DNA from: a virus
Lineage: Duplodnaviria > Heunggongvirae > Uroviricota > Caudoviricetes
Strand: one strand, 5' to 3'
IMG/VR virus record: IMGVR_UViG_2541047842_000004
Length of the DNA stretch: 35,960 nt
Both the position numbers and the translations under genes were made by a program. The notes beneath the pieces were generated by a model, which ran no database searches, had not been told where the DNA came from, and saw only the letters and a program-made list of their open reading frames with translations. Shown piece by piece: positions 1 through 20,107 of this stretch; position 1 is the first letter of the stretch; each line of letters opens with the position of its first letter.

Positions 1-1143
1 CTATGCTGTTTTGATATCTACGATAACCCAGTCTTTACCACGATCATCATTGTATCGGTCGGTCATTTTTCTGGATTTATGGCCTAACAACTTTTGCGTA
101 TCCAGACCCTGTTCCCGATATAACCGTTCTGACAGAGATCGCTGCTCATGAAATGTGGGCGCAGTTCCTTGCTCCCATTTTATGCCACATTTTTCCCTGG
201 CCTTTTTAAAAGCCGTTGTCAGAGTATTTGCAGAAACCTGGTCTCCTCTGTTTGCTTGAGAGGTAGTGTGACGGTAATGGACCAGATATTTACTAACAAC
301 AGCATCCCTGCACTGAGATATAACTTCACGAAGGGTAATATTCAGAGCATCGCATTTCAGGTTAAGCGGAATAGCAAGTTTTGAACCGGTTTTTTCCTGA
401 GTAATGTGCAACATGTCGTCCCAGATATCAGAGAATTTCAAATTGCAGATATCACCTAAACGTTGTCCAGTAACAAGAGCAAGTAGCATGCCGCATTTTA
501 AATAGGGCTGCCGTCTGCTTACGCTTTCAAATATTGCCTGCCATTCGGGCAGTGACAATCTTTGGCGGTTTACTCGATTTCGCGGTTGTTTTGTTGCCTG
601 CGCTGGGTTAAATCCTGGCGGAACATGTCCTGCGTGTTGTGCTTCTTTGAAGACGTCGATCAACACCATTCTCACGACTTGCGCCATCCTGTTATGACCT
701 TCAGCCTTTACAGCATCAATTATTTCGGCAATATCAAGTGCGGTAATATCCTTGAGGTGTTGCATTCCACAATGCTCACGGAAAAGACGAATGGGTTTGC
801 CTTTTTGCCGATAGGAGTTGGGTCTTAGTTCATTATGTTGCAGCCTGTCCTCCTGGATAGAAATATATTTATCAAGCCATTCTGTCACCGTAATTTCTGA
901 GCGCCTGCCTTTCATTCTTTCCAGACGCTCATTGACGCTTAATATTTGTCGGGTACGTTGTTCAGCAATAATGGTATTTGCTTCAGTAGCAACTTGTTTT
1001 GCTTCATTCTCATCAGTTCCTAAGCTATGAAAACGACCGGATAGTGGATGTTTGTATTGCCAATATACCTTTCCGGTTCGCTTATCTAATTTGCAATATA
1101 AATTGGGTATAGAGATTTTGTGAGATCGGGGTCTAGCAGCCAT
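1..1143 (-). CDS. int: Phage tyrosine integrase (lambdoid Int family, not lambda Int itself)
   Basis: 380-aa ORF whose stop codon is at positions 1-3; C-terminal catalytic region shows tyrosine-recombinase-like motifs (TFHEQRSLSERLY, LLGHKSRKMTDRY); start overlaps the adjacent excisionase-like ORF. Confidence 0.9.
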   Translation of the reverse strand: MAARPRSHKISIPNLYCKLDKRTGKVYWQYKHPLSGRFHSLGTDENEAKQVATEANTIIAEQRTRQILSVNERLERMKGRRSEITVTEWLDKYISIQEDRLQHNELRPNSYRQKGKPIRLFREHCGMQHLKDITALDIAEIIDAVKAEGHNRMAQVVRMVLIDVFKEAQHAGHVPPGFNPAQATKQPRNRVNRQRLSLPEWQAIFESVSRRQPYLKCGMLLALVTGQRLGDICNLKFSDIWDDMLHITQEKTGSKLAIPLNLKCDALNITLREVISQCRDAVVSKYLVHYRHTTSQANRGDQVSANTLTTAFKKAREKCGIKWEQGTAPTFHEQRSLSERLYREQGLDTQKLLGHKSRKMTDRYNDDRGKDWVIVDIKTA

Positions 1144-1369
1144 CAGCGATTATCCGTTGGAGTTTTGGGTTTGCGTTTATTGGGAGTTGCGGTTCTGCAA
1201 GCGTTCCTACAAAACGGGAATTTCGGTCAATCATCCAGTAGCGACCAACTTTTATAGCGGGTGGGGCCATCATTTTCCCTTGCGCGTATTTTTTCAGAAC
1301 TCGCTCACTTGGTGCTAAGTCCCCAAATTCTTCTTTAGCCCAGTCCTGTAAAGTGATTAGTCGAGACAT
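1133..1369 (-). CDS. xis: Excisionase-like protein
   Basis: 78-aa ORF immediately upstream of int with an 11-nt overlap, the typical xis-int arrangement; N-terminal LxLQDW and KVGRYWM segments resemble small phage excisionases. Family assignment is by recollection. Confidence 0.65.
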   Translation of the reverse strand: MSRLITLQDWAKEEFGDLAPSERVLKKYAQGKMMAPPAIKVGRYWMIDRNSRFVGTLAEPQLPINANPKLQRIIADGC

Positions 1370-1508
1370 TTGTCCTCCTCTTAGCTGCTGAGGGAGTTTG
1401 TGACCGATATATCTGACATGATATTAAGCTCATGGCAGGTACATCTCTTGACTGGTCATAGAGATAAATTTAATGCTGAGAAATGCAGTATTGAATTTAT
1501 CAATTTTT

Positions 1509-1748
1509 CTATTTCCTGCGTATGGCACGTAACTTCTTAATGTGTTCTGCCGTTTCGATCTCTTCTGCTATCCGATCTGCATCAGCTTTATTCACAGGTT
1601 CAAAGTCATGATTAAAGCGGAACATGCTGGCGATACATGTTCTGCCTTTTCGGATGTAGTGAACTTTGTTGTAGGTAGAACGCAGGATTTTGCAGGGAGT
1701 GCCGTGGTGGTCGACGTACCAGGTGTTAGGAAAAATGATTCTGAGCAT
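1509..1748 (-). CDS. Hypothetical protein (early-left accessory region)
   Basis: 79-aa ORF on the same strand as the pL operon; no family recognised. Confidence 0.45.
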   Translation of the reverse strand: MLRIIFPNTWYVDHHGTPCKILRSTYNKVHYIRKGRTCIASMFRFNHDFEPVNKADADRIAEEIETAEHIKKLRAIRRK

Positions 1749-1795
1749 TTTTACACCTCAGTTGGACGATGTTGAAATTTGCTGCTTTGAGGCCA

Positions 1796-2014
1796 TCACA
1801 ATCCCCATTGTTTGTTCTTAAGTTCGATCTCCTCCTGGCAACTTGCACAAGTCCGACAACCCTGAACGACCAGGCGTCTTCGCTCATCTATCGGATCGCC
1901 ACACTCACAACAATGAGTGGCAGATACAGTCTGGTAGTTCAGACGACGCATTTTTATTGCTGTATTGCGCTGTAATTCTTCGATTTCTGATGCTGAATCA
2001 ATGATGTCTGCCAT
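1796..2014 (-). CDS. TraR/DksA-family C4 zinc-finger protein
   Basis: 72-aa ORF with CxxC...CxxC spacing (CCECGDPI ... CRTCASC), characteristic of the phage/plasmid TraR-DksA zinc-finger family. Confidence 0.7.
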   Translation of the reverse strand: MADIIDSASEIEELQRNTAIKMRRLNYQTVSATHCCECGDPIDERRRLVVQGCRTCASCQEEIELKNKQWGL

Positions 2015-2065
2015 CTTCCATTAATCCCTGAATTGTTGGTTAATACGCTTGAGGGTGAATGCGAA

Positions 2066-2091
2066 TAATAAAAAAGGAGCCTGTAGCTCCC
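2066..2091 (-). terminator. Putative rho-independent terminator (minus strand) between early-left genes
   Basis: Minus-strand reading gives hairpin GGAGC-tacag-GCTCC followed by a TTTTTTT run. Confidence 0.35.
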
Positions 2092-2112
2092 TGATGATTT
2101 TGCTTTTCATGT

Positions 2113-2412
2113 TCATCGCTCCTTAAAGACGCCGTTTAACATGCCGATCGCCAGGCTTAAATGAGTCGGTGTGAATCCCATCAGCGTTACCGTTTCGCGG
2201 TGCTTCTTCAGTACGCTACGGCAAATGTCATCGACGTTTTTATCCGGAAACTGCTGTCTGGCTTTTTTGATTTCAGAGTTAGCTTGACGGGCAATGCTGC
2301 GAAGGGCGTTTTTCTGCTGAGGTGTCACTGAACAAGCCCCATGCCGGAAAGCATAAGCACACAGAATATGAAGCCCGCCGCCAGAAAAATGCATTCTGTT
2401 GTTGTCATGCAA
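2113..2412 (-). CDS. Hypothetical protein (non-lambda, occupies the lambda orf61 position)
   Basis: 99-aa ORF whose start overlaps the stop of the upstream orf63-like gene by 8 nt (translational coupling); no family recognised. Confidence 0.5.
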   Translation of the reverse strand: MHDNNRMHFSGGGLHILCAYAFRHGACSVTPQQKNALRSIARQANSEIKKARQQFPDKNVDDICRSVLKKHRETVTLMGFTPTHLSLAIGMLNGVFKER

Positions 2413-2596
2413 GCTCTCTCTCGTTTGCCTCTGCTTTCGCCGCCATCATTTCCAGCTTTTGTGAAAGGGATGCGGCTAACGTATGAAATTCTTCGTCTGT
2501 TTCTGCTGGTATTGGCACAAACCTGACTCCAATTTGAGCAAGGCTATGTGCCATCTCAATGCTCGTTCTTAACTCAACAGGAGATGCTTTGTGCAT
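2405..2596 (-). CDS. Lambda orf63-like small protein
   Basis: 63-aa ORF at the position collinear with lambda orf63 relative to exo; sequence matches my recollection of lambda orf63. Confidence 0.6.
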   Translation of the reverse strand: MHKASPVELRTSIEMAHSLAQIGVRFVPIPAETDEEFHTLAASLSQKLEMMAAKAEANERELA

Positions 2597-2751
2597 ACAG
2601 CCCCTCGTTTATTATTTATCTCCTCAGCCAGCCGCTGGGCTTTCAGTGGATTTTGGATAACAGAAAGGCCGGGAAATACCCAGCCTCGCTTTGTAACGGA
2701 GTAGACGAAAGTGATCGCGCCTACCCGGATATTATCGTGAGGATGCGTCAT
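2569..2751 (-). CDS. Lambda orf60a-like small protein
   Basis: ORF immediately upstream of exo, collinear with lambda orf60a; start taken at the internal Met (MTHPHD...). Confidence 0.55.
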
Positions 2752-3428
2752 CGCCATTGCTCCCCAAATACAAAACCAATTTCAGCCAGTGCCTCGTCCA
2801 TTTTTTCGATGAACTCCGGCACCATCTCGTCAAAACTCGCCATGTACTTTTCATCCCGCTCAACCACGACATAATGCAGTCCTTCACGCTTCATACGCGG
2901 GTCATAGTTGGCAAAGTACCAGGCATCTTTTCGTGTCACCCACATGCTGTACTGCACCTGGGCCATGTAAGCCGACTTTATGGCCTCGAAACCACCGAGC
3001 CGGAACTTCATGAAATCCCGGGAGGTAAACGGGCATTTCAGCTCAAGGCCATTGCCGTCACTGCATAAACCATCGGGAGAGCAGGCGGTGCGCATACTTT
3101 CGTCGCGATAGATGATCGGGGATTCAGTAACATTCACGCCGGAAGTGAATTCAAACAGAGTTCTGGCGTCGTTCTCGTACTGTTTTCCCCAGGCCAGCGC
3201 CTTAGCATTAACTTCCGGAGCCACACCGGTGCAAACCTCAGCCAGCAGGGTGTGGAAGTAGGACATTTTCATGTCAGGCCACTTCTTTCCTGAGCGGGGC
3301 TTTGCTATCACGTTGTGAACTTGTGAAGCGGTGATGACGCCGAGCCGTAATTTGTGCCACGCATCATCTCCCTGCTCGATAGCTCTCACGTCGATCCCGG
3401 TACGCTGCAGGATAATGTCCGGTGTCAT
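2748..3428 (-). CDS. exo: Lambda exonuclease (Red alpha)
   Basis: 226-aa product [30 protein letters not shown]... is near-identical to lambda Exo as I recall it; 4-nt overlap with bet. Confidence 0.97.
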
Positions 3429-4210
3429 GCTGCCACCTTCTGTTCAGTGGCTTTTTGTTTCAGGAATCCAAGAGCTTTCACTGCTTCGTCCTGTGTCAGT
3501 TCTGACGATGCACGAATGTCGCGGCGAAATATCTGGGAACAGAGCGGCAATAAGTCGTCATCCCATGTTTTATCCAGGGCGATCAGCAGAGTGTTAATCT
3601 CCTGCATGGTTTCATCGTTAACCGGAGTGATGTCGCGTTCCGGCTGACGTTCTGCAGTGTATGCGGTATTTTCGACAATGCGCTCGGCTTCATCCTTGTC
3701 ATAGATACCAGCAAATCCGAAGGCGAGACGGGCACACTGAATCATGGCTTTATGCCGTAACATCCGTTTGGGATGCGACTGCCACGGCCCCGTGATTTCT
3801 CTGCCTTCGCGAGTTTTGAATGGTTCGCGGCGGCATTCATCCATCCATTCGGTAACGCAGATCGGATGATTACGGTCCTTGCGGTAAATCCGGCATGTAC
3901 AGGATTCATTGTCCTGCTCAAAGTCCATGCCATCAAACTGCTGGTTTTCATTGATGATGCGGGACCAGCCATCAACGCCCACCACCGGAACGATGCCGTT
4001 CTGCTTATCAGGGAAGGCGTAAATTTCTTTCGTCCACGGATTAAGGCCGTACTGGTTGGCGACGATCAACAATGCGATGAACTGCGCATCGCTGGCATCA
4101 CCTTTAAATGCCGTCTGGCGAAGAGTGGTGATCAGTTCCTGTGGGTCGACAGAATCCATGCCGACACGTTCAGCCAGCTTCCCTGCCAGCGTTGCGAGTG
4201 CTGTACTCAT
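3425..4210 (-). CDS. bet: Single-strand annealing protein Bet (Red beta)
   Basis: 261-aa product [37 protein letters not shown]... matches lambda Bet. Confidence 0.97.
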
Positions 4211-4730: not shown

Positions 4731-4863
4731 TTTTTGGGACTCCTGGCTGATTAAGTATGTCGATAAGGCGTTTCCATCCGTCACGTAATTTACGGGTGAT
4801 TCGTTCAAGTAAAGATTCGGAAGGGCAGCCAGCAACAGGCCACCCTGCAATGGCATATTGCAT
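4699..4863 (-). CDS. cIII: CIII (FtsH protease inhibitor, stabilises CII)
   Basis: Hand translation of the minus strand from ATG at 4863 gives [54 protein letters not shown] (54 aa), which is lambda cIII; below the 60-aa cutoff of the ORF track. Confidence 0.85.
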   Translation of the reverse strand: MQYAIAGWPVAGCPSESLLERITRKLRDGWKRLIDILNQPGVPKNGSNTYGYPD

Positions 4864-4935
4864 GGTGTGCTCCTTATTTATACATAACGAAAAACGCCTC
4901 GAGTGAAGCGTTATTGGTATGCGGTAACGCCGCGC

Positions 4936-5564: not shown

Positions 5565-7271
<1,707 letters not shown>

Positions 7272-7361: not shown

Positions 7362-7670
7362 TCATCTCGCCGTCAGTTGTTTTGATTTCCGGTAGCCTGC
7401 CGCGTAAATAGCTACGTTTGGCAGGCAAACACTTCCACTGCATTCATCTACTTTCTTGCAGCGAAGGCTTCCGAGTGATATTGCTTTTTCAGAAAGGCTT
7501 AACCGCTTTCTCGGGTCTTCCTGAACAGGTTCCTCACTGTCTGTGCCGAAGATCGAATCGATGATGTTGCAGATGGAATCACGCTCGATGGCCAGCTTTC
7601 TGCGCCGCTCATGACGGCGAGTTTTGGCATTTCCTGCAAATGTTGATTTTCCGTACACGATTACCGTCAT
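7362..7670 (-). CDS. N: Antitermination protein N homologue (P22 gp24-type)
   Basis: 102-aa product from ATG at 7670: MTVIVYGKSTFAGNAKTRRHERRRKLAIERD..., with an arginine-rich N-terminal motif; resembles P22 gene 24 protein as I recall it, not lambda N; sits just downstream of nutL. Confidence 0.8.
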   Translation of the reverse strand: MTVIVYGKSTFAGNAKTRRHERRRKLAIERDSICNIIDSIFGTDSEEPVQEDPRKRLSLSEKAISLGSLRCKKVDECSGSVCLPNVAIYAAGYRKSKQLTAR

Positions 7671-7788
7671 GATGTTTTCCTCATGTGAAATGGCTTTGGT
7701 GGTGATGCGCCAGATGCTGATCTTCTGGTTGCTGTCGTTACTGCTGCAATTCACATCACCCCAAACCCATCTCGTTTGGTATCTGTTC

Positions 7789-8112: not shown

Positions 8113-9012
8113 TTATTTGATTATTTCTTTTATAAAGACTTCTTTCGGTTGGTATTTTTTATCTGATGATTTGAGCTGGTACGTTATTGTTATATCAGCA
8201 CGTACAGAAAATTTACCTGCAAAATCTGATGGGTTTACGTTGGGGCCAAGAACCATATTTACTCTTCGATCTATTAATCCAGGGATAACAGCAGCCCAAC
8301 CTTTCTCTGGATTGTCGAGGTCTAATGCACGGATTTCAACATCAACATCAAAATGATCCTGAGTATATGACTCTGGTGTGAAGACAACTTCAGTTGGGGC
8401 TTTTTTAATGGTTTCAGCGGGAATGGTCACTGTACCACCCCCTGTACCTATGACCATCGTAGATCCTTCGTCTGCCCTAGCTGGGGCAAGCGTCTTAATG
8501 GAACTTTTGGCAAGAGTCTTCTTATTGGTTACCGTGCTTTCTATGATTGCTTGAAGACGGTCAGGTGAAATATTAGCCTCACCGGCACCAATATTGATGA
8601 TTGTATTGTTATTTGCTTCAAAGTGGGAGGTGTTGCTTGGAGCCATAGCCTTAGTTGCTAGAACTAAGCCATATCCAACCAGACCAATAACAACAGCACC
8701 AACGAGAGCGTTTCTCATTTTCCCATTTCCGATCTTTGCATGAGCGCCAGCAAGAAACTTGTCCATTTCTTCTTGGCTACCAAAGAGGAGTTTAATAACA
8801 ATATCTTCATAAAGGCTTCCTGCTTCTAATCGCGCAACATGCACCGATATATCAAGGATATTAGCCCCTGTCAGTTCCTGCAAAACACCTTCTGATTGTT
8901 TTGCGATGGCCTCCCACCCTTGAAGGGAGGTAATCACATCTTTGATGCTTACAGGTTCTTTAGTTGAATAATATATGTTTTCGGTAAAGGTTAAAGATAA
9001 TTCTTGGGACAT
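8113..9012 (-). CDS. Uncharacterised 299-aa predicted single-pass membrane protein in the rexAB slot downstream of cI (candidate exclusion/defence gene)
   Basis: Long ORF with GAGG Shine-Dalgarno about 6 nt upstream of ATG 9012; one strongly hydrophobic segment near residues 100-124 (ALVGAVVIGLVGYGLVLATKAMA); coding region visibly AT-rich compared with flanking cI and structural genes; followed by a terminator; no match to any protein I can recall. Confidence 0.75.
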   Translation of the reverse strand: MSQELSLTFTENIYYSTKEPVSIKDVITSLQGWEAIAKQSEGVLQELTGANILDISVHVARLEAGSLYEDIVIKLLFGSQEEMDKFLAGAHAKIGNGKMRNALVGAVVIGLVGYGLVLATKAMAPSNTSHFEANNNTIINIGAGEANISPDRLQAIIESTVTNKKTLAKSSIKTLAPARADEGSTMVIGTGGGTVTIPAETIKKAPTEVVFTPESYTQDHFDVDVEIRALDLDNPEKGWAAVIPGLIDRRVNMVLGPNVNPSDFAGKFSVRADITITYQLKSSDKKYQPKEVFIKEIIK

Positions 9013-14824: not shown

Positions 14825-15202
14825 ATGCGTGATATTCAGATGGTTCTTGAGCGTTGGGGAGCGTGGGCGGCTAATAATCATGAAGATGTGACCTGGTCGT
14901 CCATTGCCGCCGGTTTTAAGGGATTAATTCCTTCAAAAGTAAAATCTCGCCCGCAATGTTGTGACGATGACGCGATGATCATTTGCGGGTGCATGGCCCG
15001 TCTGAAAAATAACAACAGCGATTTGCATGATTTGTTAGTGGACTATTATGTCGGCGGCATGACTTTTATGGCGCTTGCGCGTAAGCATGGTAGATCTGAT
15101 TGTTGGATTGGCAGGATGCTCCAAAAAGCTGAGGGCGTAGTGGAGGGCATGCTGATGGTGTTGGATCTCAGATTGGAGATGGATGCTGATTGTTTGAGAT
15201 AA
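14825..15202 (+). CDS. Q: Late-gene antiterminator Q (phage 82 / DLP12 QuuD type)
   Basis: 125-aa product from ATG 14825: [60 protein letters not shown]...; resembles QuuD/Q82 as recalled; followed by a terminator. Confidence 0.85.
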
Positions 15203-15300
15203 TTAAAGGAAAAGTTGCTGTCTGGTTATCATTAGACTAATGTTTCAAATGTTAGAATCGCAACGTAGTTATGATCATATAACAGCTTGTTCCCTGATTT

Positions 15301-15330
15301 AGCCAGCCTCCCCAAAGGCTGGTTTTTTTT
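15301..15330 (+). terminator. tR'-like rho-independent terminator downstream of Q
   Basis: Hairpin AGCCAGCC-tccccaaa-GGCTGG followed by an 8-T run; in the position of lambdoid tR', where Q acts. Confidence 0.6.
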
Positions 15331-15358
15331 CTAATAAGTATCAATCCGGTTAGGTATT

Positions 15359-15883
15359 TTATTGTTTGACCCATAATAGTTCATTGACATTGAATCCCAA
15401 TTTTTGAGCAGTACGCACATAGTCTGCTTTTACATTATCTGGAATAGTTGGAGTCCGTGCCAGAATCCATAGGTATTCTCTGTTCGGACCACTGACAAGA
15501 GCATACTTATACTCATCATCCAGTTTGATTACATTATAGCCACCATAGAAGGGGCCAAAAAACGAAACCTTCAACGCTGCAGTTGTATTATCTCCTGTAA
15601 AGTATGCTTTACCTTCGCTCTCGCTCCATTTGTTTTTCGTTGGGTCATATCCACGATTAAGTACACTAATCCCTCCGTCGTTCCGTTTCCCATAAGTGGC
15701 GCTGACCTGTTCCAGACCACGTTCAAATCGGTTCTCAAGCCGAGCTATTTCATACCATTTTCCGAGGTAGCGGTTGGTGTCAAAATTTGTAATCGGCTGC
15801 ACACCTTTAGGTGGTGTCGGGGCCTTACATGCTATCAGAGTGAAAGAGAGTGCAATGCCAGTCAACACAGGCCATAACTTCAT
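15359..15883 (-). CDS. blc: Bacterial lipocalin (Blc-like outer-membrane lipoprotein)
   Basis: 174-aa product with a lipoprotein signal peptide and lipobox (LIAC) and lipocalin motifs (GKWYEIARLENRFERG, YFTGDNTTAALKVSFFGPFYGGYNVI); resembles E. coli Blc. Confidence 0.85.
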   Translation of the reverse strand: MKLWPVLTGIALSFTLIACKAPTPPKGVQPITNFDTNRYLGKWYEIARLENRFERGLEQVSATYGKRNDGGISVLNRGYDPTKNKWSESEGKAYFTGDNTTAALKVSFFGPFYGGYNVIKLDDEYKYALVSGPNREYLWILARTPTIPDNVKADYVRTAQKLGFNVNELLWVKQ

Positions 15884-16075
15884 AATATATCCTGTACTTT
15901 TGATAGTTGAGAGTAAGTATTAAAGATAGATGATTACTACCGATCACCTAAAGAACTTTCCTACTATATTAGGAATAGTCCATAACAAAAAAATTGTCAG
16001 TGATGACGGCAGAAAGGCAGTTTAGGTCGTGTACTACACTGTTAACCTGTTAATGAATTAGTCAAGGGGTAGGCA

Positions 16076-17035
16076 ATGATAAAAAAACCTGTCGTTGGGA
16101 TCAGTGGTTGTTTGGCCGGTTCTTCTGTCCGTTTTGATGGTGGTCACAAAAGAGCTAGCTTTTTAATGGACAAATTACTGGAATGGGTAACATTCAAACC
16201 AGTATGTCCGGAAATGGCTATAGGGCTTCCAGTTCCGCGTCCTGCTCTACGTCTTGTTCGCTCGGCGCAAGGAAATATACGGATGTGTTTCAGCCACGAC
16301 CAGAATGAGGATGTTACAGAGAAAATGACAGAGTTTAGTCGTTCTTATCTTGACAAATTAAAGGATGTATCGGGATTTGTGGTTTGTGCAAAATCTCCTA
16401 GCTGTGGTATGGAACGCGTGCGTGTATATGATGAAAATGGTAATCGTGGTCGTAAAGATGGAGTGGGACTATTTACGAGCACGTTGATGGAAAGGTTTTC
16501 CTGGCTACCGGTTGAAGAGGATGGGCGACTACATGATCCAGTGCTTCGTGAAAACTTTGTTGAAAGAGTATTTGCTTTACATGAGCTCAATCATCTTTAT
16601 AAAGCGAAATTATCAAGAAGGGAATTATTAGCTTTTCATAGCCGTTATAAGCTTCAGTTGTTGGCGCATAGCCAGGCCGGTTATAAAGAGATGGGGCCAT
16701 TTGTGGCTGCAATACATGAGTGGGCAGACCTTGAATCATACTTTGAGGTGTATCGTGAGAAGCTGATGGCGATTCTCAGAAAACCTGCATCACGTAAAAA
16801 TCACACGAATGTGCTGATGCATATACAGGGATATTTTAGTAACTGCTTAAATACACGTCAGCGTAAAGAGTTGAGCGATGTTATACTTAACTATCGAGCT
16901 GGCACGCTACCTCTTCTTGCGCCATTAACTTTGCTGAAGCATTACTTGGCAGAGTATCCTGATGATTATTTGCTTATACAGAATTACTTCCACCCCTATC
17001 CTGATGAACTGGCTCTAAGACTCTTGGTGAACTAG
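16076..17035 (+). CDS. DUF523 (TudS-like Cys-rich domain) fused to DUF1722 (YbgA-like) protein
   Basis: 319-aa product; N-terminal conserved cysteines (GISGCLAG..., PVCPEMAIGLP..., CAKSPSCGMERV) and a C-terminal YbgA-like region (…FHSRYKLQLLAHSQ…HTNVLMHIQGYF…). Domain assignment is by recollection. Confidence 0.75.
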   Translation: MIKKPVVGISGCLAGSSVRFDGGHKRASFLMDKLLEWVTFKPVCPEMAIGLPVPRPALRLVRSAQGNIRMCFSHDQNEDVTEKMTEFSRSYLDKLKDVSGFVVCAKSPSCGMERVRVYDENGNRGRKDGVGLFTSTLMERFSWLPVEEDGRLHDPVLRENFVERVFALHELNHLYKAKLSRRELLAFHSRYKLQLLAHSQAGYKEMGPFVAAIHEWADLESYFEVYREKLMAILRKPASRKNHTNVLMHIQGYFSNCLNTRQRKELSDVILNYRAGTLPLLAPLTLLKHYLAEYPDDYLLIQNYFHPYPDELALRLLVN

Positions 17036-17344: not shown

Positions 17345-18085
17345 GTGGATGGTATGCCATGCATATGTTCTATCATTTTGGTTTTGAACTCGTTTGATAT
17401 CCGGCTTGGTAAAGAAAAAATCTCTCTAAAAAAAGGAAGTGTTGTTGCTATAGAATACAATTTAAAAGTTTTCTTTTCTTCAAATAAAGATAATATAATG
17501 ATCGTGGATATTGAAGAGAAAACAGTTAATGACTTCTTTAAAAACAATACACTCTCACCTTTTTCTGTAAGAAGATTTTATTCAGCATACTTGATAGTAA
17601 ACTGTACAGACTATTCATTGTTAAAGAACTTGATAGGTTGCTTGAATTGTGATGGTGAAACTACGGCTGTAGTTAAAAATTCAATATTATTTGCATGTCT
17701 TGCTATTTTATCCTCGGAAAAAATGTTTCAGAGTTTTTTGTTTGGGTGTCTTAATAGTTTAGGAAGCAAAGTTAAGGCTATTATTCACTCGGACATATCT
17801 GCAGCATGGAGACTTTGTGATATTTCTTCAAGACTATGTCTGAGTGAAAGTTTGTTAAAAAGAAAACTAAAACACGAAGGCTTATCATTTAGCAAATTAA
17901 TTCTTGAAGAACGAATGGTGATGGCTGAAAGGTTATTAAGCTACAATTTCTATCCTGTTGGGAAAGTTGCTAAAATATGTGGTTATGAAAGCGCGTCATA
18001 TTTTATAAGTGTTTTCAGAAGATATTTTGGTGTTCCCCCCCATGAATATTCATCAAGATTTTTTTTAGAAAAAGGCAAGATGTAA
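17345..18085 (+). CDS. AraC/XylS-family transcriptional regulator (AppY/EnvY/Rns-like), start uncertain
   Basis: C-terminal AraC-type double HTH (…LCLSESLLKRKLKHEGLSFSKLILEERMVMAERLL… KVAKICGYESASYFISVFRRYFGVPPHEY); very AT-rich gene preceded by ~300 bp of AT-rich non-coding DNA. Confidence 0.75.
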   Translation: MDGMPCICSIILVLNSFDIRLGKEKISLKKGSVVAIEYNLKVFFSSNKDNIMIVDIEEKTVNDFFKNNTLSPFSVRRFYSAYLIVNCTDYSLLKNLIGCLNCDGETTAVVKNSILFACLAILSSEKMFQSFLFGCLNSLGSKVKAIIHSDISAAWRLCDISSRLCLSESLLKRKLKHEGLSFSKLILEERMVMAERLLSYNFYPVGKVAKICGYESASYFISVFRRYFGVPPHEYSSRFFLEKGKM

Positions 18086-18252
18086 CGTGATGCGTTTTGA
18101 TGATTTTGTAATTTTCATATTTGATGATTATATGATGCTTTCAGCTACGCCAGAATAATCGCTGGCGTTTTTCTTTTCTAATGTAACTTCTGTATCTTTC
18201 CCTCTTTCATTCCAAACCGTGTACACCATCCGTTATTCGCGGAGGTGAGGCT

Positions 18253-18468
18253 ATGAAATCCATGGACAAGTTAACAACGGGCATTGCCTACGGCACCTCT
18301 GCAGGCAGTGCTGGCTACTGGTTTTTACAGTGGCTTGATCAGGTCAGTCCGTCACAGTGGGCGGCGATTGGAGTGCTTGGAAGCCTTGTGTTGGGTTTTC
18401 TCACTTATCTGACAAACCTTTATTTCAAGATTAAAGAAGATAAGCGTAAGGCTGCGAGAGGTGAATAA
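18253..18468 (+). CDS. S: Holin, phage-21-type pinholin (class II) with dual-start motif
   Basis: 71-aa product [71 protein letters not shown] with Met1 and Met4 starts and two TM segments; resembles S21. Confidence 0.9.
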
Positions 18469-19454: not shown

Positions 19455-19748
19455 TTATTGTGAGCAATAGACACGCGCTTCCAGCGGAGTATAAATGCCT
19501 AAAGTAATAAAACCGAGCAATCCATTTACGAATGTTTGCTGGGTTTCTGTTTTAACAACATTTTCTGCGCCGCCACAAATTTTGGCTGCATCAACAGTTT
19601 TCTCCTGTCCAATTCCCGAAACGAAGAAGTGATGGGTGATGGTTTCCTTTGGTGTTACTGCTGTCGGTTTGTTTCCAACAGTAAACGTCTGTTGAGCACA
19701 TCCTGTAATAAGCATTGCCAGAGCGGCAGAAAACAACATTTTTTTCAT
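19455..19748 (-). CDS. bor: Bor lipoprotein (lysogenic-conversion serum-resistance factor)
   Basis: 97-aa product from MKKMLFSAALAMLITGCAQQTFTVGNKPTAVTPKETITHHFFVSGIGQEKTVDAAKICGG...; matches lambda Bor; lipobox ITGC. Confidence 0.9.
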   Translation of the reverse strand: MKKMLFSAALAMLITGCAQQTFTVGNKPTAVTPKETITHHFFVSGIGQEKTVDAAKICGGAENVVKTETQQTFVNGLLGFITLGIYTPLEARVYCSQ

Positions 19749-20107
19749 CTTATTATCCTGCATTGTTAAAAACGGCAGAATCCTATGTGACAACAATTAA
19801 ACGATAGTTAAATGGATTGATGAAAATTAAAACTATATAGGTGGATGCTCAGCCTATTGGAGGAGGGGGGCACTCAGAATCCTGTGGAATGAAATAAACC
19901 GCTCTTTCTGTCCATTACCCTTTTAGCTGCGCTGTATCGTCGCCGTATTCCCGCATTAACCATGACCGTAGCCCGACGGGGAATTCCTTCTGCGTGAGTG
20001 TGCGGGAATAATCAAAAACGATGCACACCGGGTTTTACTGTGCTGACAGACGCAGGGTTACCCTCATAGTCGCTTTTCCGGTGCGATGGTGGAAGAAACC
20101 GGGATGT

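Follow-up and report, generated by a model that had tools for sequence, protein, structure and literature searches.

Why does a lambdoid prophage carry, between its late antiterminator gene Q and its holin gene S, a lipocalin gene paired with a gene for an iron-sulfur enzyme, and what would the two do for phage or host? We have addressed this question for IMG/VR record IMGVR_UViG_2541047842_000004, a stretch of 35,960 nucleotides (nt) called the window below, which is a lambdoid prophage extending from integrase through tail genes. The pair consists of blc, encoding a Blc-like lipoprotein lipocalin of 174 amino acids (aa) with a Lipocalin_2 match (15359-15883, minus strand), and rudS, encoding a 319-aa protein with TudS/DUF523 and DUF1722 Pfam domains (16076-17035, plus strand). 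A sequence-only reading of this DNA had taken both genes to be phage cargo. Both open reading frames (ORFs) were found exactly where it had put them, at 174 aa on the minus and 319 aa on the plus strand, and both do lie between Q (14825-15202, plus strand) and holin S (18253-18468, plus strand).

The explanation that we hold with somewhat better than even confidence is that these genes form a moron in the Q-S interval, with rudS as its core and with blc and rudS as a pair from a chromosomal cluster, and that the cassette acts in lysogenic conversion. The RudS enzyme itself is nothing new, because an identical protein has already been characterised. What is new here is the inherited pairing of blc with rudS, the purifying selection on both genes, and a prevalence in Escherichia coli that limits the statement that this species lacks RudS.

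Identity of the 319-residue protein

Profile searches placed two complete Pfam domains on the one polypeptide: 2-thiour_desulf (DUF523/TudS, PF04463) at residues 7-149 (E-value 3.6e-40, profile positions 1-141 of 141) and DUF1722 (PF08349) at residues 192-309 (1.3e-40, profile positions 1-117 of 117). The motifs CLAG (C12), CPE (C44, E46) and CAKSPSCG (C104, S107, S109, C110) are all present. When the protein was aligned to the sequence of the TudS crystal structure 6Z92 (phmmer, 8.9e-05), C12, C44 and C110 fell on the TudS cluster ligands C10, C43 and C104, and E46, S107 and S109 on the catalytic residues E45, S101 and S103. Of the two cysteines of CAKSPSCG, it is the second, C110, that is the cluster ligand, while nothing in TudS corresponds to the first, C104. 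The TudS-type Fe-S domain that the sequence-only reading had seen in the N-terminal half is thus confirmed by the ligand alignment which that reading had proposed as a check, and its conserved cysteine motifs stand, except that C104 does not correspond to a TudS ligand. Ligands and catalytic residues show no variation across 14 enterobacterial homologues and 80/80 viral alleles; here and below, counts of viral contigs refer to the 80 that were fetched of 121 IMG/VR contigs encoding a close RudS relative. A [4Fe-4S] cluster has been shown for TudS and for RudS_KT, and in the window protein such a cluster is predicted, from the alignment, to be held by Cys12, Cys44 and Cys110.

The N-terminal domain is therefore homologous to TudS (PDB 6Z92-6ZW9), with ligands and catalytic residues in common. 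TudS, however, is a single-domain protein of 166 aa whose substrates are free bases and nucleotides, whereas RudS is a DUF1722 fusion whose substrate is tRNA, and the window protein, as a 319-aa two-domain fusion, does not match the stand-alone TudS class. Its C-terminal half is 50% identical to K-12 YbgA, in agreement with the YbgA-like half described earlier. A PDB profile search with the 14-sequence alignment gave no gain over the single-sequence match to TudS. AlphaFold2 on the same alignment gave a poor RudS model (mean predicted local distance difference test, pLDDT, 53; predicted template modelling score, pTM, 0.47), which was not used for a fold search, as any matches would have carried no meaning.

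The window protein is identical at 319 of 319 positions to gp66 (H3V29_gp66) of Escherichia phage 1H12, known as RudS_vir, and the surrounding 3050 bp of DNA are 99.9% identical. RudS_vir is the phage 1H12 gene synthesised by Jamontas et al. (2024, NAR 52:10543), who list H3V29_gp66 in their Table 1 with Cys12/Cys44/Cys110 (PMC11417400). Overexpression of six RudS proteins, RudS_vir among them, in E. coli BL21(DE3) lowered the 4-thiouridine (s4U) of tRNA 4.7- to 26-fold, stand-alone TudS and YbgA left it unaffected, and activity was for the most part lost in cysteine mutants of RudS homologues (PMC11417400). We have very little doubt that the 319-aa protein of the window is the tRNA 4-thiouridine desulfidase RudS. 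Its function in a phage had been called unknown in the sequence-only reading; what the enzyme does is in fact published (PMC11417400). That paper treats RudS_vir without the slot that the gene occupies, the lipocalin and AraC-like genes linked to it, its chromosomal source or its prevalence in E. coli.

The partner lipocalin

The 174-aa protein matches Pfam Lipocalin_2 (PF08212, 2.2e-43) and the NCBIfam Blc subfamily (NF007786, 315.5 bits against a cutoff of 267). Its N-terminus, MKLWPVLTGIALSFTLIAC-K, holds a signal peptide and the lipobox L16-I17-A18-C19 with a non-Asp residue at +2, Cys19 standing at the same position as in K-12 Blc. With the outer-membrane lipocalin Blc of E. coli (b4149) it shares fold family, length, the lipobox Cys19 and the NCBIfam Blc subfamily, but the two are only 60% identical, whereas identity to the lipocalins that adjoin chromosomal rudS in Serratia, Enterobacter, Leclercia and Kluyvera is 75-82%. 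Judged by these identities, the phage lipocalin is a paralogue, not an orthologue, of the chromosomal ampC-adjacent blc. The family, signal peptide and lipobox given for it earlier therefore stand, and it is to the rudS-linked lipocalins, not to chromosomal Blc, that the protein belongs.

Chromosomal relatives and origin of the pair

Relatives of the pair were sought on chromosomes in a scan of one genome per species, which gave 80 rudS loci whose neighbours were searched by tblastn with the neighbour proteins. Chromosomal rudS genes fall into two paralogous clades, 68-76% (clade 1) and 51-64% (clade 2) identical to the phage protein. In clade 2, rudS is followed directly by a photolyase gene (phr) or, in Photobacterium, by a MerR-family gene and then phr. 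Clade 1 occurs in three arrangements. In one (e.g. Citrobacter, Klebsiella), rudS ends an operon for SnoaL, short-chain dehydrogenase/reductase (SDR), amine oxidase, DUF1365, cyclopropane-fatty-acid (CFA)-synthase-like, DUF2878, chalcone-isomerase-like and DUF3833 proteins, with a MerR-family (MlrA-like) regulator upstream in most loci. The second, a short form seen in Enterobacter, Leclercia and Serratia rubidaea, has a lipocalin gene diverging on the minus strand from MerR-rudS. In the third, that of Kluyvera cryocrescens, the divergent lipocalin gene and rudS are directly adjacent in an ordinary chromosomal context. Lipocalin, MerR gene, the whole operon and rudS occur together in Pseudescherichia vulneris, and in Proteus a lipocalin gene lies just downstream of rudS.

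Among the 20 closest chromosomal rudS loci (clade 1), a lipocalin gene lies upstream on the opposite strand in 11, with a MerR gene between the two in nine of these 11, and a MerR-family regulator is found in 15. The proteins of the divergent pairs in Enterobacter, Leclercia, Serratia and Kluyvera, with or without MerR, are 71-82% identical to those of the phage pair. RudS_ST of Salmonella LT2 (STM1389, ORF319) has the 319 aa and the cysteines 12, 44 and 110 of phage RudS. Clade-1 RudS of Enterobacteriaceae, RudS_ST included, is 71-76% identical to the phage protein, with a MerR-family regulator nearby and, in many genera, a divergent lipocalin. The phage copy differs from these genes in having neither MerR nor the 8-gene operon, in lying in the Q-S slot of the late region, and in forming its own clade. 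The phylogeny that had been suggested as a way to tell chromosomal from phage origin places it accordingly: in a neighbour-joining tree the prophage RudS alleles form one clade, which branches beside the clade-1 chromosomal genes and apart from the photolyase-linked clade.

No MerR gene was found by tblastn in the 80 viral contigs, nor in the window, where the place that it holds on chromosomes is taken by the 192-bp divergent intergenic region between blc and rudS (15884-16075). This region is ~90% conserved among phage alleles. A sensitive blastn search with the four intergenic regions of the cassette found no homology to chromosomal rudS loci, so that the donor and the deletion junctions are not traceable at the DNA level, and no near-identical donor was found. 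By gene order and protein identity, blc and rudS are an inherited pair left over from a MerR-headed enterobacterial chromosomal cluster, and the phage copy has lost MerR. On the simplest reading, the lipocalin-rudS pair was captured once, long ago and without MerR, and then spread among lambdoid phages through recombination at the Q-S slot.

The E. coli chromosome has its own trace of the family, since its ybgA-phr is the same locus as clade-2 rudS-phr. YbgA (b0707; K-12 739001-739510) aligns with residues 145-317 of clade-2 RudS at 58-60% identity, the homology begins 24 nt before the annotated start codon, and the H-repeat transposase gene ybfD lies just upstream; for these reasons ybgA looks like a 5'-truncated rudS. 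No remnant of the TudS domain was found upstream of K-12 ybgA. YbgA resembles the C-terminal half of phage RudS, at the 50% given above, but has no TudS domain and no effect on s4U, and belongs to the phr-linked paralogous clade.

Distribution in phages and in E. coli

The gene is rare among isolated phages, with full-length RudS in only 12 coliphages out of 50,697 deposited phage records, but it is common in the prophages of E. coli. The 3-kb Q-to-S interval of the window is 99.9-100% identical to 11 of these temperate coliphage records (Lambda_ev phages, 1H12; Jouyvirus) and 90% identical to the twelfth. Complete E. coli genomes gave rudS matches in 1082 of 5426, with at least 80% of the gene covered in 1064; the allele of the window (at least 99% identity) is present in 110 genomes and a 90-95% allele in 971. 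The whole cassette lies between Q and holin in at least three backbones, namely the Jouyvirus type of the window and DLP12-like and Qin-like prophages. In the viral contigs, the lipocalin gene is at a fixed offset from rudS in all 80, Q is adjacent in 79 and the holin gene is present in 76. The RudS protein cluster (at least 90% identity) has 2556 members, and at least 1000 contigs carry the exact sequence; of the 40 members that were read, all those with a name are from Escherichia, and the next relatives are at most 76% identical.

The sequence-only reading had called such an enzyme unusual for a prophage. For E. coli this does not hold, since 1064 of the 5426 complete genomes have rudS, as do several types of prophage. 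Nor is the gene a routine chromosomal paralogue linked to phage in this prophage alone, as the 12 phages, 121 IMG/VR contigs and three backbones attest. The statement that E. coli lacks RudS, made in PMC11417400 and used to explain differences between E. coli and Enterobacter under near-ultraviolet (near-UV) light (PMC11417400; 2026 review PMC13602947), is true for K-12 and B-type strains only, not for the species.

Two further records bear on distribution. BL21(DE3) is the expression host of the RudS paper, in which E. coli is said to be without a homologue of RudS or TudS (PMC11417400). At NZ_CP053602.1 1589487-1590350 it carries a Qin remnant with an intact phage-type lipocalin gene and the initial 147 nt of rudS, which IS3 truncates. 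A 3.2-kb contig of a metagenome-assembled genome labelled Candidatus Nanosynbacter (JARKOR010000151.1) holds the rudS-araC-holin segment of E. coli prophages, its proteins being 82-92% identical, and is almost certainly a binning contaminant.

Selection on the cassette genes

Ratios of nonsynonymous to synonymous substitution (dN/dS) were computed for the window allele against the DLP12-like and Qin-like alleles. They came to 0.10-0.13 for rudS, at a synonymous divergence (dS) of ~0.29-0.30, and to 0.07-0.08 for blc (dS ~0.19); the AraC-like gene that follows rudS gave 0.28 (dS ~0.35). The rudS ORF is intact in 80/80 viral contigs and that of blc in 79/80. Both rudS and blc are under purifying selection; the genes are maintained and are not decaying passengers.

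The Q-S slot and the third gene

The gene order around the pair is Dam methyltransferase, NinX, RusA, Q, blc (minus strand), rudS, AraC-like gene, holin S, endolysin, Rz/Rz1 and Bor (minus strand), with a spacer of 156 bp between Q and blc. Q itself matches Pfam Phage_antitermQ (PF06530, 2.5e-51), is annotated as gp64 in 1H12 and is 88% identical to QuuD of K-12 DLP12. An assignment to the phage-82 type was dropped, as PF06530 is the Q21 family (PMC9388147). Homology to K-12 DLP12 ends at 15184 and restarts at 18242, downstream of the cargo and next to holin S, and K-12 has the nmpC porin gene in between, which makes the entire interval a module of exchangeable cargo. The G+C content is 0.41-0.43 in blc and rudS and 0.305 in the AraC-like gene, against ~0.49 in the flanks. 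The cargo thus has the marks of a Q-S moron: its place is between Q and the lysis genes, other cargo can take that place, and its G+C content is atypical. The slot is the one that holds nmpC in DLP12, with different contents, and is comparable to that of other lambdoid Q-S cargo, such as the nmpC/lc porin genes of DLP12 and PA-2 and stx of 933W.

The third cargo gene (17354-18085, plus strand) encodes a 243-aa YdeO/GadX-like regulator of the AraC family with HTH_18 and HTH_AraC domains. It matches the NCBIfam YdeO profile over its full length (2.1e-32), though under the equivalog cutoff, and the next best match is GadX. By description it is alike in kind (low G+C, YdeO-like) to the prophage acid-resistance regulators PatE, PsrA, PsrB and AppY. 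The gene is present in 73/80 viral contigs, and relatives at 52% identity hold the same Q-S slot in the rudS-free phages mEp332, PhiR70_1 and ev099, which makes it a separable moron. Its absence from 7/80 contigs and its relatives in rudS-free phages also bear on the idea that it substitutes for the lost MerR.

Regulatory elements and predicted expression

A putative Q-dependent late promoter region with a presumed terminator tR' follows Q (15203-15334, plus strand). It comprises PR'-like hexamers in a promoter-like site at 15174-15203 and a strong intrinsic terminator with a 9-bp stem (five GC pairs) at 15301-15324, a T8 run and a U-tract reaching 15334. The hairpin at 15301-15324 has a folding energy of -14.2 kcal/mol (z = -3.8) and is directional, the minus strand having no U-tract. 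The canonical Q cassette has the order Q gene, PR', pause element, terminator, late genes (PMC9388147). By analogy with that layout, the element after Q, which is conserved in all three cassette-bearing backbones, is a candidate PR'/tR' of the Q late unit. The blc-rudS intergenic region holds one weak sigma70-like site (15907-15934).

A second terminator-like hairpin with a U-tract (18147-18178, plus strand; -11.3 kcal/mol, z = -2.9) separates the AraC-like gene from holin S. Conserved, like the first, in the three backbones, it forms the downstream border of the cargo module. The hairpin at 18147-18168 was considered as an alternative tR' and rejected, there being no promoter-like site before it and the stop codon of the AraC-like gene lying ~60 nt upstream. 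K-12 DLP12 has an unrelated plus-strand terminator-like hairpin with a U-tract, and both hairpins are ~85-190 nt upstream of the holin gene. Such a hairpin might close off the cargo or serve as an additional terminator that Q reads through. An Rfam scan gave no match in the cassette; the only match in the window was the lambda cIII thermoregulator element (RF01804, 88.5 bits; 4818-4876, minus strand).

If the element after Q is indeed PR'/tR', RNA polymerase modified by Q would transcribe blc in antisense, rudS and the AraC-like gene in sense, pass the hairpin at 18147-18178 and enter S. Since blc points against this late transcript and rudS along it, blc would be expressed only in the lysogen, and rudS both in the lysogen and on induction.

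Other features of the window

A Bor/Iss-type lipoprotein gene (19455-19796, minus strand; Lambda_Bor, 1e-30) stands just past the lysis genes, a second lysogenic-conversion gene beside the cassette; its homologue in one related locus is annotated iss (increased serum survival). An ORF for an IS5-family transposase (6109-7125, plus strand; DDE_Tnp_1, 5e-35, and DUF772) lies between sieB (5565-6104) and N (7362-7754), which directly adjoin each other in phage 1H12, where the IS5-family ORF is missing. The insertion is in the pL operon downstream of N, and the window prophage may be impaired in early gene expression or in excision. At the place that rexAB has in lambda, a 299-aa ORF (8113-9012, minus strand) separates N from the cI-like repressor gene. 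It gave no match in Pfam or PADLOC and is annotated as hypothetical in 1H12; it may be an exclusion or defence gene expressed in the lysogen. Phage 1H12 also has sitABCD, for a manganese/iron ATP-binding cassette (ABC) transporter, at its positions 353-3802 near the attachment site, so this phage type carries several host-fitness cargo modules.

Discussion

The catalytic mechanism of RudS has been published and was shown elsewhere, not on the window protein. Carried over to that protein, a [4Fe-4S] cluster on Cys12, Cys44 and Cys110 would bind the sulfur of s4U at tRNA position 8/9 through its free fourth iron, Glu46, Ser107 and Ser109 would catalyse the conversion of s4U to uridine, and the DUF1722 half would hold the tRNA. 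As a prophage cassette, the genes would then bring about lysogenic conversion by giving E. coli an s4U eraser and its partner lipocalin. The prophage would be the supplier of this eraser because E. coli has no chromosomal RudS and only ybgA, which corresponds to the C-terminal half of the photolyase-linked paralogue. Cross-linking of s4U leads to translation arrest and accumulation of guanosine tetraphosphate (ppGpp). Erasure of s4U would lessen near-UV cross-linking of tRNA, growth delay and the stringent response, and the lipocalin would support the envelope. RudS_KT of Pseudomonas putida KT2440 reduced the growth delay caused by ultraviolet A (UVA) light (PMC11417400), and published work ties RudS genes and MerR-family regulators to light responses (V. 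cholerae MerR-phr; PMC11417400 discussion, PMC5241685). We advance lysogenic conversion as the role of the cassette tentatively, with confidence a little short of even.

Several points weigh against this role. The gut, the main habitat of E. coli, is dark, and a UV-related benefit would therefore arise only outside the host. The light-stress reading of the chromosomal cluster would be carried over from other species, and the regulator of the enterobacterial rudS loci is MlrA-like, not a B12-binding LitR. Native expression, whether in the lysogen or upon induction, is deduced for the cassette from gene layout; the hexamer matches of PR' are weak, and the overall promoter count is not above the shuffled expectation. 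The activity of RudS_vir was measured only under overexpression, and although well expressed it was less active than RudS_ST at similar protein levels; the UVA phenotype belongs to RudS_KT, not to RudS_vir (PMC11417400).

The main rival to lysogenic conversion is that RudS serves lytic growth. Transcribed late under Q, it would erase s4U to keep translation going or to blunt ppGpp when sunlight induces the prophage by way of ultraviolet B (UVB) and the SOS response and at the same time cross-links tRNA by way of UVA. In favour of such a role, rudS points the same way as the late genes, its place in the Q-S interval is behind the PR'/terminator-like element, and it is linked to Q in 79/80 contigs; the lower UVA growth delay with RudS_KT and the arrest and ppGpp that follow cross-linking speak for it too. 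The orientation of blc against the late transcript fits expression in the lysogen instead, and the cassette is intact also in prophages resembling the cryptic DLP12 and Qin of K-12. An Fe-S enzyme would moreover have to work through the whole tRNA pool in a short late phase of 20-30 minutes, and no LexA box was found in the window with up to three mismatches allowed, so there is no evidence for direct SOS control. We regard a lytic role as unlikely, and somewhat more so the form in which RudS is a tool of host takeover, a Q-dependent late gene that after sunlight or SOS induction erases the near-UV sensor s4U8, so that neither a stall nor a stringent response occurs during virion production.

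The enzyme might also act, as a TudS-like protein, on free thiouracil or thio-nucleotides in salvage or detoxification and not on tRNA, which was the version of the sequence-only reading. Its TudS domain and ligands are conserved, and in a uracil auxotroph on 4-thiouracil RudS_vir had the shortest lag of six RudS proteins. In the same work, however, no RudS supported growth as TudS did, growth on 4-thiouracil being delayed and that on 2-thiouracil absent, so that free thiouracils are a residual RudS substrate only (PMC11417400). Together with the change of tRNA s4U by all RudS fusions and not by stand-alone TudS (PMC11417400), and with a DUF1722 domain that is kept and highly conserved, this makes action on free bases improbable. 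We think it still less probable that the genes are neutral hitch-hikers, brought in by illegitimate recombination and kept only by linkage to Q and the lysis genes. The slot does take unrelated cargo, as nmpC in DLP12 illustrates, and some genomes, BL21(DE3) included, have insertion-sequence insertions or truncations. Against drift stand the dN/dS of 0.07-0.13 at dS ~0.2-0.3, the intact rudS with all catalytic residues in every viral contig and the intact blc in all but one, and the presence of rudS in ~20% of complete E. coli genomes on three prophage backbones. Least probable of all is an anti-phage defence or superinfection-exclusion module. Prophage cargo slots often house defence genes, and the state of tRNA modification could affect an incoming phage, but PADLOC models gave no match for the three cassette proteins, all of which come from housekeeping or stress families whose chromosomal homologues stand in contexts unrelated to defence.

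The finding bears on both the host and its phages. As ~20% of complete E. coli genomes have an intact prophage rudS, the choice of strain matters in near-UV experiments. The joint capture of lipocalin and rudS points to a functional link, open to testing, of an outer-membrane lipocalin with a tRNA eraser, and the position of rudS behind Q allows an easy test of whether a phage uses a tRNA-modification eraser during induction. If RudS did act in host takeover, it would be the first virus-encoded tRNA-modification eraser acting in a lytic programme. In a weaker form, if true, the cassette would be a portable kit for near-UV and photo-oxidative tolerance that influences how well about one in five E. 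coli strains survives outside the gut.

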